Shown one piece after another: positions 1-56,148 of a DNA stretch of 64,000 bases (positions are counted from its first letter, which is position 1; each line of letters begins with the position of its first letter). The position numbers and the translations under genes are program-made. This DNA comes from an uncultured Bacillales bacterium (GTDB lineage Bacteria > Bacillota_I > Bacilli_A > RF39 > UBA660). Where the stretch lies: contig CAMOSD010000001.1 of NCBI GenBank assembly GCA_946624595.1, forward strand, positions 6,201 through 70,200, read 5' to 3'. Below the pieces are notes generated by a model. That model was not told the DNA's origin and did no database searches. It was given only the letters and a program-made list of their open reading frames with translations.

Positions 1-198
1 CCACACAATTGCATCATGGGAACATCTTTGGAAAATCGTTCCGTCCCAATAAATTGTATAGTGGGCACCAGTACCATTTTTTGATAATTCATAATTTTGA
101 CCATCTACTCCTAAATAGTGAATGGCTATATATTCATGTGTATTTCCGAATTTTGGCACATATACTTCTGAAATTTTATTTACTATTTTATATGCCAT
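1..198 (-). CDS. N-acetylmuramoyl-L-alanine amidase (amidase_2/PGRP-like), N-terminal part, gene runs off window start
   Basis: Minus-strand ATG at 198 with SD GGAGAAAAAATAAATT upstream. Translation MAYKIVNKISEVYVPKFGNTHEYIAIHYLGVDG...GAHYTIYWDGTIFQRCSHDAIVW matches the T7-lysozyme/PGRP pattern (Zn-His in IAIHY, then AHYxIxxDGTI...xW). Open to position 1. Confidence 0.5.
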   Translation of the reverse strand, partial: MAYKIVNKISEVYVPKFGNTHEYIAIHYLGVDGQNYELSKNGTGAHYTIYWDGTIFQRCSHDAIVW

Positions 199-323
199 AA
201 TTTATTTTTTCTCCAATGGGCGGGATTTACCCGCTATAAGAAGGCCGCCTATGTGGGCAGCCCTGGTTATTAAGTTACTTGCTTACGCAAATGGGTCTTT
301 AGTTGCGTAGATTGAGGCATACT

Positions 324-1298
324 TTAATTCAGTACCATGTTATTTAGCGTTTCCACATTTGATGCTGTATCCGCAACTGCTATAGGTGTTGTGTCTTCAG
401 ACGATATGATATTTTGAGATAAAATAACATTCGCATCTGTTCCTTCTATGCTGATTGCTTTCCCAGTGGAAGTTATGATATTATTGCATACATGAACATT
501 TAGTGTCCCCTTTAATCTGATGCAATCTAAATCTATTCCATCAAATACAGAATCCTGTATATAAAGGTTCTTGTAGGAATGGCAGTTTGCACCTCTCGTA
601 CAATTCCGCACAGTACATCCGATAAACCGCACTTCGTTCCCTCGATAATCTGTTAATTCATGATTTCCGAAAGGTGCAAAGCAATGTTCAAACAGGCAGT
701 TCTTAATTGTTATATAATCACTGTTTGTATTGTCATAGTATCCATAATTTACGGATGTGCCATCAGATGCCGGGTCAATATTGATTGCTTCTTTCCTGTC
801 CGAACCATATGATAAATTCTTAAATTCGCAGTTATCAAATAAGACATTTTTAGAAGCATTTACTTCTATTGAATGCGCTCCTTCGATGTTCAAGAAAATG
901 CATCTTCGGAAAGTAATATTTTGAGCATGTACAATAATGGCATGATTCTTTGCCATTCCGTTCATGTTTATGGTCATGTCAGATATAACTACATTATTGC
1001 TACCTTCATATCCATAAGCCCAATTCCCACGCTCGCATATAAGGAAGGCATTGCAATTATTAGTTACATCCAGTGTTGCGCCATTCCCTATAATAAATGT
1101 GTTGCTGTACACATTATTTTCTGTTGCTATCTTATAGGTTTTCGGCTGTAAATAACAGACAACATTACCATTTTTAAGCATTTCCTTAAAAGCCGGACCA
1201 TCATCCGTTACTCCATCGCCTTTTGCTCCAAACATTTCGGGGGTAACGAAAGTAACATCTGCAATAATACTACCCTCATAGTTATAAAATTTACTCAT
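324..1298 (-). CDS. Right-handed beta-helix (pectate-lyase fold) protein, putative tailspike/depolymerase
   Basis: 324-aa ORF with repeated NxxxIxxN beta-helix-like motifs (NNVVISDMTINMNGMAKNHAIIVHAQNITFRRCIFLN). No in-frame TAG. Adjacent to fibre genes. Confidence 0.55.
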   Translation of the reverse strand: MSKFYNYEGSIIADVTFVTPEMFGAKGDGVTDDGPAFKEMLKNGNVVCYLQPKTYKIATENNVYSNTFIIGNGATLDVTNNCNAFLICERGNWAYGYEGSNNVVISDMTINMNGMAKNHAIIVHAQNITFRRCIFLNIEGAHSIEVNASKNVLFDNCEFKNLSYGSDRKEAINIDPASDGTSVNYGYYDNTNSDYITIKNCLFEHCFAPFGNHELTDYRGNEVRFIGCTVRNCTRGANCHSYKNLYIQDSVFDGIDLDCIRLKGTLNVHVCNNIITSTGKAISIEGTDANVILSQNIISSEDTTPIAVADTASNVETLNNMVLN

Positions 1299-1314
1299 TT
1301 ATTTATCATCTCCC

Positions 1315-53126: not shown

Positions 53127-54277
53127 TGAATGAATTAGAACGTAAAAAATATCTTGAAGATATAAAGAACAATTTGACGATTGACCAGGTATATGAATTC
53201 CTTACTGATATGGGCGGAGAACCACAGATTCATCATGATGTAATTGTATCACGTACAATTTGTCATAATCCGCCTGGTCATGGTTCTTTTAAATTATATT
53301 ATTATGATAATACAAAATTATTTAAATGTTTTACTCAATGCAATGATACATTTGATATTTTTGAATTAACATTAAAAATAAAAGCAACAGCACAAGAACA
53401 AATAGTTTATTGGTCTAAAGAAGGTAGAAAAGTATCTCGCCCATGGGATTTACCTGATGCTGTTCATTATGTTGCAGTCTTTTTTAATATTGAACCGCCA
53501 AATGAAATATTTTCAGAAAAACATTCAGAACTTCAGGATTGGCAAATTTTTTCAAAATTAGAAGCAAAAAAACATAAAAAATCAAGTAATCAAATTGTCT
53601 CTTTGAACACTTTTCAATGCGATTTTTTAAAAAATTTTCCACAGCCTATTATACTCCCATGGATTAAAGAAGGTATATCACAAGAGATAATTCAATATCA
53701 TAATATACGTTACAATCCTATAACCCAAGGAATCCTTATTCCTCATTATAATATTAATGGGGAATTAATTGGTATTAGAGAGCGGACACTCCTTAAAGAA
53801 AATGAAACGAAAGGTAAATATATTCCTGCTATTATTCACGGAAAAATGTATAATCATCCTTTAGGCTTTAACTTATATAATATTAACGTTAGTAAAAATA
53901 ATATACGTAATATAAAAAAGGCTATTATTTTCGAAGGTGAAAAAAGTCCGCTTCTATATGAAAGTTATTTCGGTATCGAGAATGATATTACAGTTGCCGC
54001 ATGTGGAAGTAATTTAATTAACTATCAGATTAATATGCTTTTATCTCTTGGAGTTCAAGAAATTATTATTGGTTTCGATAGACAATATGAAGAAACTGGA
54101 GATGATAATTGGAAAAAATGGACTAAGAAATTAATTGATATTAATAAAAAATATAATTCAAAAGTGCAAGTAAGTTTTCTATGGGATAAAGAACATTTAT
54201 TAGATTTTAAAATGTCCCCTATTGATAATGGACCTGATGTTTTTCTAGAATTATTTAAAAATAGGATTATTATTTGA
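53126..54277 (+). CDS. DNA primase (toprim domain)
   Basis: Toprim E in IIFEGEKS and DxD in IGFDRQYEETGDD. N-terminal Cys/His cluster. Confidence 0.5.
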   Translation: MNELERKKYLEDIKNNLTIDQVYEFLTDMGGEPQIHHDVIVSRTICHNPPGHGSFKLYYYDNTKLFKCFTQCNDTFDIFELTLKIKATAQEQIVYWSKEGRKVSRPWDLPDAVHYVAVFFNIEPPNEIFSEKHSELQDWQIFSKLEAKKHKKSSNQIVSLNTFQCDFLKNFPQPIILPWIKEGISQEIIQYHNIRYNPITQGILIPHYNINGELIGIRERTLLKENETKGKYIPAIIHGKMYNHPLGFNLYNINVSKNNIRNIKKAIIFEGEKSPLLYESYFGIENDITVAACGSNLINYQINMLLSLGVQEIIIGFDRQYEETGDDNWKKWTKKLIDINKKYNSKVQVSFLWDKEHLLDFKMSPIDNGPDVFLELFKNRIII

Positions 54278-54312
54278 GTTGTCATGTAAATTTGACAACT
54301 CAAATTTTTTTT
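54276..54312 (+). terminator. Intrinsic terminator gagttgtca...tgacaactc plus T9
   Basis: Seen directly. Confidence 0.55.
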
Positions 54313-54360
54313 GTTATTATATAAAGAAGAGAAAATAATAAAAGAAAGGTAACAAAAAAT

Positions 54361-56148
54361 ATGAAATATCAATTAATAAATCCTATTAATCAGAGTTATT
54401 CAACAATAGAACAAATTCTAACTAATAGGGGAGTTCCTTATAATGAAGTATATCATTATCTTAATACAACCGATAACGATATAAATTCTTTTAAAGAATT
54501 AGATGTATTAAAACTACGAGCGGCCGCAAAAATTCTAATGAAAACTATTCAAGATAATCATAGATGTTTAATAATAGTAGATAGTGACGCTGATGGTTTT
54601 ACCAGTTCTGCAATTTTGATTAACTATTTATATGATTTATTCCCAGTTTGGGTAAAAAATAAAATAGATTATCGCGTTCATGAGGGTAAACAGCACGGAT
54701 TAAATGACCATATAGATTGGATATTAAAAGAAAATGAATCATTGTCTGATAATTGGTATTCATACTATTCTCTTGTTATTATACCAGATGCAGGCTCAAA
54801 TGATGTAGATGAATGTACTCGTTTAAAACAAAATGGTATTGATACAATTATTTTAGACCATCATATTTGTGATATTGAAAATCCTGATGCTATTGTTATA
54901 AATAATCAATTATCAGATTATCCTAATAAAGATTTTAGCGGAGCAGGTATAGTTTGGCAATTTTGTCGTTATTTAGATTCATTACTTGGTATTAATAATG
55001 CTGATAATTATACAGATTTAATGGCATTAGGTAACTGTGCTGATATGATGTCTATGTTATCTATTGAAACAAAACATCTTATTAATAAAGGATTTCATAA
55101 TCTTAAAAACCCATTCTTTGTAAACTTATCTGAAAAAAATGCCTTTTCTATGAATAATAAAATTAATCATATGAGTGTGGCTTTTTATGTAGCTCCGTAT
55201 ATTAATGCTATTTGTAGAAGTGGAACTAAAGAAGAAAAAACATTAACGTTTGAATCTATGCTAAAATACAAAGCATTTAAAATGTTACCTTCTACTAAAA
55301 GAGGACATGCTGTAGGTTAGCAAGAACAACTTGTTTAGCAAGTAATGAGAATTGTTACTAACGTAAAGAACAGACAAACAAAAGCACAAGATAGTGGATT
55401 ACAAACAATAGAAAGAATGATATAGGAGCAACATCTTTTAGACCATAAAGTATTATTATTTTTACTTGAACCTGGCCAAGTTGATAAGAATATTGCAGGT
55501 TTAATTGCTAATAAAATTATGGCTAAATATCAAAGACCTACGTGTTTATTAACAAAAGTAATAGATAATGGAATTATATCTTATCAAGGTTCCGCAAGAG
55601 GATGTGATAAAGTCGGAATAAATGATTTTAAAAGTGTATGCGCGGAGACAGGTTTAACAATGTATTAGGTAGGTCATCCTGGTGCATTTGGTCTAGGTAT
55701 ATTACAAGAAAACATTCCCGCCTTTATAGAAAAAACTGATTAGTTATTAAAAGATATGCCTAATTAGGCAATGTATTATGTGGATTATATTTATCAAGGA
55801 AATAATATAAATCCAAATGATATACTTACTATTGCTAATATGTAGGATTTATGGGGAAAAGATATAGATGAACCATTTATATGTATTTAGCATTTAAAAG
55901 TAACTTCAGATATGGTAACAGTTTATGTTAAGAAAAATAATACTTTAAAAATAACTACTCCACAAGGTATATCATTAATTAAATTTAAAGCAACTGATGA
56001 AGAGTGTTATATGTTACAGAATACTTCTGGCTATTATGAATTAAATATAATAGGGAGAGCACATCAAAACGAATGGATGGGAAATATAACTCCTCAAATT
56101 TTTATATAGGACTATTAGGTTATAGACCGAGGCAATTTTGTATTTTAA
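54361..56148 (+). CDS. RecJ-like DHH/DHHA1 phosphoesterase (approx 595 aa). TAG-free 5' half, 10 in-frame TAG in the 3' half
   Basis: DHH motifs IIVDSDADGFTSS and ILDHH in ORF 54361..55320. The frame continues past TAG 55318 through ...PTCLLTKV...Y-x-VGHPGAFG (DHHA1 GGH..AAG motif) with TAG at 55318, 55336, 55423, 55666, 55741, 55765, 55843, 55888, 56107, 56116. TAA 56146-56148. Confidence 0.55.

Follow-up and report, generated by a model that had tools for sequence, protein, structure and literature searches.

A rumen phage in which the amber codon most likely specifies glutamate

We analyzed the genetic code of a phage represented by 64,000 nt of contig CAMOSD010000001.1 (hereafter the window, meaning the whole stretch of DNA that was analyzed), which is 64 kb of a siphovirus-type phage genome of ~135–145 kb from sheep rumen. 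TAG is a sense codon in this phage, and the best explanation of the data as a whole, which we regard as highly probable, is a phage code in which TAG stands for glutamate (Glu), is read by a phage-encoded Glu-type tRNA(CUA), and is kept out of the early genes. This is most likely an undescribed TAG-to-Glu variant of phage stop-codon recoding, a phenomenon that is well established but in which TAG recoding has been equated with glutamine (Gln) by the field, by gene callers, by NCBI taxonomy (“code 15 clade”) and by protein databases. A preliminary description of the window had read it as a stop-codon-recoded phage to be retranslated under genetic code 15; our results support that interpretation in part, finding it right in kind and wrong on the code.

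Calling genes with only TAA and TGA as stops yielded a map of 45 closely spaced genes (19,235 codons), preceded by Gram-positive-type Shine–Dalgarno sites and covering 90.4% of the AT-rich window (31.5% GC). In-frame TAG occurs 190 times (1.0% of codons) in 19 of these genes and is missing from the other 26. None of the 44 complete genes ends in TAG (TAA terminates 35 and TGA 9), which bears out the earlier claim that open reading frame fragments join in frame across TAG while TAA or TGA ends each gene; the fragments spanning 3219..5711, for example, are joined over the TAGs at 5109–5111 and 4380–4382. TAA and TGA together make up 8.6% of off-frame codons, such that chance is ruled out as the origin of open frames of 3,134 codons (the tape measure gene, probability ~1e-123) and 1,681 codons (12865..17910, ~1e-66); frequent TAA or TGA in the joined frames, named beforehand as grounds for doubting them, were not seen. 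Read-through of TAG restores the Pfam domains PhageMin_Tail, Peptidase_S74, GH25+CHAP+GW, AAA_24, DHH/RecJ_OB and GIY-YIG, and TAG positions are conserved among independent contigs. The proposal that TAG is sense in late, lysis and accessory genes thus stands, together with the TAG counts given for the RuvC-like (5), AAA_24 (4) and RecJ-like genes (10, in the 3′ half) and the TAG-free state of late genes 324..1298, 1315..2550 and 10165..10947. Some figures needed correction: the tape measure gene contains 93 TAGs and would hence fall into far more than the nine fragments reported, the endolysin gene has 7 rather than 6, and the coiled-coil/GIY-YIG gene has 22 (6.9% of its codons) rather than about 24 (7.5%).

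To read the residue specified by TAG, we took related contigs, more than 180 in all, from IMG/VR and metagenomic assemblies and aligned the window proteins to their DNA by tblastn with TAG written as X; because the comparison is made with DNA, it carries no bias from the code used by any gene caller. Among relatives of <90% identity, the residues opposite window TAGs (n = 2,151) are E 43.6%, K 11%, D 9.5%, A 6% and Q 5%, and the aligned codons are chiefly GAA/GAG. In the same alignments, true Glu sites give E 52%, D 10%, K 8% and Q 5%, whereas true Gln sites give Q 39% and E 12%. The log-likelihood of Glu over Gln at TAG is +887 in the first data set and +1,250 in the enlarged one, and Glu is the majority residue at 46 of 98 individual sites (Gln at 6). 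The TAG sites of the tape measure alone are matched in relatives by E 90, K 49, D 31 and Q 28.

Individual sites point the same way. At positions 47 and 126 of the AAA_24 protein, all aligned relatives with a sense codon have Glu (63 loci at the first position, 69 at the second), and the TAG-TAG pair of the RuvC-like resolvase gene (12111–12116) is Glu in 19 standard-coded relatives, the first site being invariant. A search of solved structures with the RuvC-like protein alone returned no match, but a family profile did match RuvC, aligning this TAG site to catalytic E66 of the E. coli enzyme (1HJR); on this alignment, the catalytic Glu of the resolvase is encoded by TAG. Pfam scores favor Glu over Gln for AAA_24 (125.1 bits with E, 120.5 with Q, 118.5 with X), RuvC (21.0 with E, 18.8 with Q, no match with X), TMP_3 (19.8 vs 17.7), GH25 (93.9 vs 92.6) and PhageMin_Tail (105.7 vs 104.5), with CHAP alone slightly favoring Gln (36.3 with E, 36.8 with Q). 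Retranslation under code 15, as advised earlier, does restore domains by reading through TAG, but Gln as the inserted residue is unsupported, since substitutions, likelihoods and Pfam scores favor Glu. Across genes, the TAG share drops as the GAA+GAG share rises (rho = −0.38, p = 0.013) and has no relation to Gln codons, and reading TAG as Glu shifts the net charge of the coiled-coil/GIY-YIG protein (g32) from +23 to +1.

Applied contig by contig, the same test returns Glu for the window and for contigs L189, L195, L200, L206 and L211, and it is capable of returning other answers: TAG lies opposite Gln in seven more distant family members (including L077, L113, L132, L167 and L247), and in-frame TGA lies opposite Trp in relatives L059, L065, L067, L074 and others. 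One phage family therefore holds, by lineage, TAG as Glu, TAG as Gln, TGA as Trp or the standard code. An automated per-genome call of Gln for L201 and L221 was discarded as an artefact of an antisense reading frame of a conserved gene, the real genes giving Glu. The RecJ-like gene (54361–56148) illustrates how the database record can mislead: four full-length database proteins (P0001–P0004, 87–97% identical) have Gln at exactly the TAG sites, a product of translation by pipelines under code 15, and the more distant standard-coded relatives examined have mostly Glu there.

No tRNA was found in the 64-kb window by ARAGORN (with or without introns) or by Rfam, in keeping with the earlier remark that no suppressor was visible there, and ARAGORN with introns and relaxed thresholds gave only spurious matches inside genes. 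The flanking region can, however, be followed through two further contigs. Window positions 1–3796 recur with 100% identity in an ENA contig (L001) that reaches 6.2 kb further left; the sequence so gained matches 6.5 kb of IMG/VR contig 3300021399_000007 (L189) at 97.0% identity, and L189 carries a 12-tRNA cluster 3.5–8.3 kb beyond the region matching L001. One member of the cluster (L189:2903–2978) has the anticodon CUA, and tRNA(CUA) is also present in nine other contigs of the clade. A scan of IMG/VR for the exact pattern of the L189 suppressor recovered only L189 itself and two chance matches, and a search within 10 kb of DnaB, DnaE and MVP-like genes in the >180 related contigs found no suppressor in close relatives. 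Directly upstream of the L189 cluster lies a complete, TAG-free gene of the sigma-70 family (regions 1.2, 2, 3 and 4; L189:15–1013), and downstream a TAG-free gene for a DUF2828/DUF7788 protein (L189:7694–9220); PD-(D/E)XK endonuclease genes stand between the tRNAs.

Nine distinct versions of the suppressor in rumen relatives keep the cloverleaf, with compensatory changes in 11 of 19 pairs and none broken, and the anticodon loop CUCUAAA and the U11–A24 pair are invariant among them. In this clade, the 1–72 pair is strong (C–G, G–C or G–U), base 73 is A in 8 of 9 versions, the D arm resembles that of the family's tRNA-Glu, the variable loop is of 4 nt in three types, and CCA is not encoded. The suppressors of TAG = Gln relatives and of the described phage phAss-1 instead have a weak or mismatched 1–72 pair, G73, a Gln-type D arm and an encoded CCA, features that agree with all 40 tRNA-Gln genes of the family. 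We also derived covariance models from the tRNA-Glu, tRNA-Gln and tRNA-Asp genes of the family itself, and these separate the two groups in the same manner. Each of the nine window-clade suppressors scores higher with the Glu model (44–68 bits) than with the Gln model (28–51 bits), by 8–20 bits, whereas 6 of 7 suppressors from TAG = Gln relatives score equally or higher with the Gln model (0 to +21 bits). For L189 and L201, scores with the Asp model are 58.8 and 58.0 bits, short of those with the Glu model by 9 and 8 bits; the other seven suppressors are not among the matches listed for the Asp model (cut at an E-value of 1e-11, with 53.4 bits as the lowest score listed). Ranked by the Glu model, the L189 tRNA(CUA) is the top match outside tRNA-Glu, save for one tRNA-Asp. 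By these features the suppressors of the window clade class as Glu-type, and the residue deduced from protein substitution profiles agrees with the type of the suppressor tRNA in each lineage. Overall similarity of whole tRNAs was set aside as a guide to suppressor origin, the nearest tRNA being variously Asp, Cys, Ser or Glu; the parsing of features and isotype covariance models were used in its place. A third phAss-1 suppressor (L137:5744–5820, phAss-1 105744–105820), beside a tRNA-Glu(CUC), scores 49.0 bits with the Glu model and 41.3 with the Gln model (+7.7), and given this Glu-scoring tRNA the code of phAss-1 itself may deserve to be checked again.

Several further tRNA observations deserve mention. 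The L189 cluster has no normal tRNA-Glu. It includes an ochre-type tRNA(UUA) (L189:4269–4343; Glu-like D arm, weak acceptor stem, 33% GC) seen in this one contig only, which might be the degenerate remnant of a tRNA-Glu or else a stage in the emergence of the suppressor. The place that the endolysin gene takes in the window, flanked by the phosphoesterase and topoisomerase B genes, is in TAG = Gln relatives that of the Gln-type suppressors. In the tRNA clusters of human-gut relatives (L169:19664–19762; L223, L229, L231, L232 and others), ARAGORN predicts tRNAs whose anticodon loop has eight bases and whose anticodon has four (“taaa”), and their location within the cluster is conserved.

The distribution of TAG among genes is far from even. 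The replication set (MVP-like, topoisomerase B and A, ligase, DnaB, primase-like, SF1 helicase and DnaE) has no TAG, as the preliminary description held, although its size is 5,283 codons rather than ~6000. The TAG-free plus-strand genes have 0 TAG against 583 GAA/GAG over 7,481 codons, and the remaining genes 190 TAG against 680 GAA/GAG (Fisher p = 6e-47); in genes that use it, TAG makes up 22% of Glu-type codons. This gene-specific avoidance is conserved in relatives (≥55% identity), in which TAG as a share of TAG+GAA+GAG is 0/3,520 for MVP-like, 0/702 for RNA ligase, 0/839 for topoisomerase B, 1/1,479 for topoisomerase A, 7/3,099 for DnaB and 3/4,972 for DnaE, as against 27% for the tape measure, 30% for the endolysin, 45% for the coiled-coil nuclease, 15.5% for RecJ-like and 7% for AAA_24. 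TAG is avoided by replisome, topology and tRNA-repair genes and used by virion, lysis, nuclease and recombination genes. The likeness to known recoded phages noted earlier thus holds for the exclusion of TAG from replication and early genes, but the TAG genes do not form one late block: in the plus-strand module, TAG-using genes (endolysin, homing nucleases, recombination) are interleaved with TAG-free ones, and the split therefore follows gene function and not genome block. In the RecJ-like gene, TAGs concentrate in the 3′ half of the window copy (Fisher p = 0.005), a pattern that is not conserved in relatives; we abandoned the idea of a built-in truncation that yields a short early product, as relatives have TAG in the N-terminal half.

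How might such a code operate during infection? UAG would be a second-rank Glu codon, decoded by a phage tRNA(CUA) with a tRNA-Glu-like body (strong 1–72 pair, A73, U11–A24), whose gene would lie in a tRNA cluster ~10–15 kb past the left end of the window, beside the phage sigma-70 gene. The host presumably reads UAG as stop with an active release factor 1 (RF1), and genes expressed ahead of the suppressor (replisome, topoisomerase, ligase, tRNA-repair and MVP-like) would be read by unmodified host machinery, which would account for their lack of TAG. After expression of the tRNA cluster, perhaps together with the phage sigma factor encoded next to it, UAG would come to be read as Glu, and tail, baseplate, lysis, nuclease and recombination proteins would be completed only with the suppressor present, tying them to late infection; we consider this timing model plausible. 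Charging would probably fall to host glutamyl-tRNA synthetase (GluRS), an enzyme that tolerates variation at anticodon position 36 where it also charges tRNA-Gln with Glu. Because the suppressor lacks the U1–A72/G73 of tRNA-Gln, it should escape both glutaminyl-tRNA synthetase (GlnRS) and GatCAB, and Glu rather than Gln would be inserted. We think it probable, more generally, that a natural UAG-to-Glu code exists in bacterial viruses by way of an amber suppressor derived from tRNA-Glu, that one phage family has switched repeatedly to TAG-to-Glu, TAG-to-Gln and TGA-to-Trp, and that the choice between Glu and Gln is set by a few tRNA identity elements (1–72 pair, base 73, D arm) that decide whether the product of host GluRS stays Glu or becomes Gln.

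The assignment to Glu has to be weighed against other accounts of the same codons, of which the conventional one is code 15, with TAG as Gln in the manner of crAss-like, Lak and phAss-1 phages and of gene-calling pipelines. Gln is the residue assigned in all published TAG-recoded phages that we found, a few TAG sites fall in Gln-majority columns, and the database RecJ-like proteins show Q at TAG sites, though merely through the way in which they were translated. We nonetheless judge this account very unlikely: Gln is found opposite 5% of TAGs (Glu 44%) and at 39% of true Gln sites, its likelihood lies ~1,250 log units below that of Glu, it would turn the catalytic Glu of RuvC into Gln, and the same method does give Gln in sister lineages. 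The tRNAs argue likewise, in that code 15 calls for a Gln-type suppressor and those of the clade have a strong 1–72 pair and A73, lack the G73 and weak 1–72 pair of all 40 family tRNA-Gln, and lose 8–20 bits when scored with the Gln model in place of the Glu model. A mixture of Glu and Gln, through partial transamidation of Glu-tRNA(CUA), through two suppressors or through a contribution by a near-cognate ochre-type tRNA(UUA), is unlikely in our estimation. Firmicutes commonly make Gln-tRNA via Glu-tRNA, which counts for it, as do the minority of TAG sites in Gln columns and the presence in L189 of a tRNA(UUA) with a Glu-like D arm; yet the substitution profile of TAG sites nearly equals that of pure Glu sites, TAG encodes invariant Glu columns, the tRNA(UUA), found in a single contig, has 33% GC and a poorly formed acceptor stem, and TAA is the main terminator.

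Assignment of TAG to some other residue (Lys, Asp or pyrrolysine) might draw on Lys and Asp being the next commonest residues aligned at TAG, on simple sequence similarity placing some suppressors closest to tRNA-Asp, and on the label “Pyl” that ARAGORN gives to any CUA tRNA. Lys and Asp are, however, the residues that normally replace Glu, and models with either of them at TAG fare worse by >1,400 log units; family tRNA-Asp are all G73 where the suppressors have A73, and the two suppressors matched by the Asp model score lower with it than with the Glu model, as given above. For pyrrolysine, no pyl genes are among the Pfam matches of the window, the tRNA is a standard Glu-type cloverleaf, and the TAG sites are Glu-like. 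Such an assignment is extremely unlikely. That TAG is a genuine stop, with fragmented pseudogenes, assembly chimeras or rare read-through behind the appearance of long frames, has nothing to recommend it beyond the expectation of the standard code, and its probability is negligible: the TAA/TGA-free frames (1e-123 and 1e-66) already refute it statistically, TAG positions recur in independent contigs, no gene ends in TAG, and the independent ENA contig is 100% identical over 3.8 kb. Against TAG as Glu itself stand the following points. The window has no CUA tRNA, and the presence of one in this genome is deduced via the 97%-identical neighboring region of another contig; most suppressors have C1–G72 where family tRNA-Glu have G1–C72; the Glu model also gives fairly high scores to tRNA-Asp genes; 6 of 98 TAG sites are Gln-majority columns; the endolysin TAG sites are uninformative as to residue; alignment to the solved RecJ structure (8Y30) is too divergent to support either residue at the TAG sites; and the assignment is evolutionary, not biochemical, in nature.

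The gene map is collected in the table below. A late module on the minus strand (324..28126) encodes tail fibers (one of them a beta-helix protein), a 1,681-aa (amino acid) fiber and a 3,134-aa tape measure, and a plus-strand module (28343..64000) holds early, endolysin, topoisomerase, replication and recombination genes.

Table. Genes of the window and their in-frame TAG codons, with TAA and TGA as the only stops
Feature	Position	Strand	TAG codons and remarks
g01 (beta-helix tail fiber) and g02	324..2550 (g01 324..1298, g02 1315..2550)	−	0; late
g03–g08, late genes with TAG	2547..10149	−	
g03, small membrane/coiled-coil protein	within 2547..10149	−	7
g04	within 2547..10149	−	2 (5109–5111 and 4380–4382)
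g05	within 2547..10149	−	4
g06, g07, g08	within 2547..10149	−	1 each
g09	10165–10947	−	0; late
g10	11259–11735	−	1
g11, RuvC-like resolvase	11928..12419	+	5, including TAG-TAG pair 12111–12116
g12	12462–12875	−	1
g13, tail fiber (CBM_5_12, Peptidase_S74 chaperone)	12865..17910	−	24; 1,681 codons
g14, tape measure (PF10145)	18217..27621	−	93 (29% of Glu-type codons); 3,134 codons, TAA end
g15	27845–28126	−	0
g16–g25, early block: phosphoesterases, Thg1-like, MVP-like, RNA ligase, AAA_33 kinase	28343..36662	+	0
g26, endolysin (GH25 + CHAP + GW)	36969..38438	+	7
g27, g28, topoisomerase II subunits B and A	38875..43341	+	0
g29, GIY-YIG/NUMOD homing endonuclease	43645..44454	+	4
g30, NAD-dependent DNA ligase	44441..46360	+	0
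g31–g35	46635..50772	+	g31, g33, g34: 1 each
g32, membrane-anchored coiled coil + GIY-YIG	46997–47953	+	22 in 318 codons; 55% of Glu-type codons
g35, AAA_24 recombination ATPase	within 46635..50772	+	4
g36, g37 (DnaB-like helicase), g38 (primase-like)	50856..54277	+	0
g39, RecJ-like exonuclease	54361..56148	+	10, every one in codons 320–586
g40–g45: Gp30.3-like, SF1 helicase, DnaE interrupted by GIY-YIG gene	56543..64000	+	0

Some of these genes merit comment in their own right. The early block contains a putative tRNA repair kit, free of TAG (29892–36113), made up of a Thg1-like 3′–5′ nucleotidyltransferase (29892–30716), an RNA ligase (33785–35023), a polynucleotide-kinase-like AAA_33 protein (35066–35566) and a metallophosphoesterase (35568–36113), a cluster worthy of note where late gene expression relies on a suppressor tRNA. 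Within the same interval lies the gene for the MVP-like protein (30771–33254; 827 aa, with the shoulder and repeat domains of major vault protein), which recurs as a conserved gene in at least 48 related contigs, in every case without TAG. The product of g32 joins an N-terminal membrane segment to a long coiled coil and a C-terminal GIY-YIG domain; it has the highest TAG density in the window and may be a toxic nuclease kept back until late infection. DnaE is in two parts, an N-terminal one (59427–62042, with a short divergent tail) and a C-terminal one from 63236, on either side of a TAG-free GIY-YIG gene (62176–63096), while in the closest relative it is a single unbroken frame of 1,326 codons (L083:7442–11419). 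The window hence contains an inserted homing-endonuclease gene, as part of an intron or within a split gene; no group I intron was matched by Rfam, and an exact-protein look-up of the endonuclease (62176..63096) gave no match.

Among phages of Firmicutes, the large family that includes this phage is akin to the SPbeta-like, Enterococcus EF1-like and phAss-1-like groups, large siphoviruses with which the phage shares DnaB, DnaE, topoisomerase II, RecJ-like and AAA_24 proteins and a tape measure of >3,000 aa. By DnaB, its nearest isolates (32–37% identity) are Enterococcus, Bacillus SPbeta-like, Staphylococcus and Enterocloster phages, and its relatives are binned with metagenome-assembled genomes of Clostridia and Bacilli, in line with the Firmicutes-type phage recognized at the outset; a nucleotide search found no close relative among isolated phages. 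Sixteen window proteins match phAss-1, whose tape measure is 3,149 aa long (3,134 aa here). The relative closest in replication genes (L138:3–11674; L142:1–9300, IMGVR_UViG_3300021399_000006; 91–96% protein identity) has tail modules that differ greatly in both sequence and placement, with a tape measure/fiber pair of only ~35% identity to the right of DnaE and baseplate genes to the left of the MVP-like gene. Structural modules are exchanged among genomes that are otherwise nearly identical. A search of the region right of DnaE in this closest long contig found no tRNAs, the place being occupied by the second, 35%-identical tape measure/tail-fiber module.

If the reassignment to Glu is correct, it adds a third kind of phage code, and the claim that only GlnRS and the tryptophanyl enzyme (TrpRS) can be hijacked for a change of code no longer holds. 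Pipelines would then place the wrong amino acid at ~1% of all positions in phages of this kind and at up to 7% in certain proteins, catalytic residues included, and the database relatives of this phage would already be mistranslated, with Gln at TAG sites. The Glu, Gln and Trp reassignments of sister lineages would make the family a natural system for studying how the meaning of a codon changes and which tRNA features decide it, as well as a source of natural Glu-inserting amber suppressors for synthetic biology. The full-text literature that we searched (subscription-only papers lying outside its scope) has no report of TAG-to-Glu in a phage or bacterium.

Comparison with known systems places the window phage close to the code 15 phages (crAss-like, Lak, Garnet/Amethyst-type and phAss-1) in its regulatory design and apart from them in the residue. 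They are alike in having TAG in structural, lysis and late genes and TAG-free early genes, a phage tRNA(CUA) in a tRNA cluster (here in clade contigs), and a host presumed to use the standard code. They differ in that TAG is assigned to Gln, with Gln-type suppressors, in the code 15 phages (an assignment shown by proteomics for crAss-like phages), whereas the clade described here has Glu sites and a Glu-type suppressor. The closest described relative, phAss-1 (OQ749652, “Phassvirus”), is distant at 25–40% protein identity; its genome of 136 kb has three tRNA-Sup-CTA genes and is annotated with code 15. In phages whose code differs from that of the host, only TAG-to-Gln and TGA-to-Trp have been seen (Borges et al.), and Gln at TAG was validated by Peters et al., with later surveys merely applying code 15. 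The TGA-to-Trp (code 4) phages follow the same regulatory logic, which sister lineages of the family use (L059, L065, L067 and others), but with another codon and residue; TGA terminates nine window genes.

The only natural code with UAG as Glu known to us is the nuclear code of peritrich ciliates (NCBI table 30, TAA and TAG to Glu). That code is eukaryotic, genome-wide and includes TAA as Glu, whereas in the window phage TAA ends most genes (35 of 44), no long frames need TAA read-through, and the reassignment is that of a virus and not of its host. In the laboratory, the series of Kleina, Normanly and Miller (1990) reportedly obtained E. coli amber suppressors from tRNA-Glu with a CUA anticodon that insert Glu at UAG, and such engineered suppressors are said to be prone to mischarging with Gln by GlnRS. 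The phage tRNAs differ in being natural, in combining A73 with a strong 1–72 pair, and in probably acting in hosts of the GluRS/GatCAB type.

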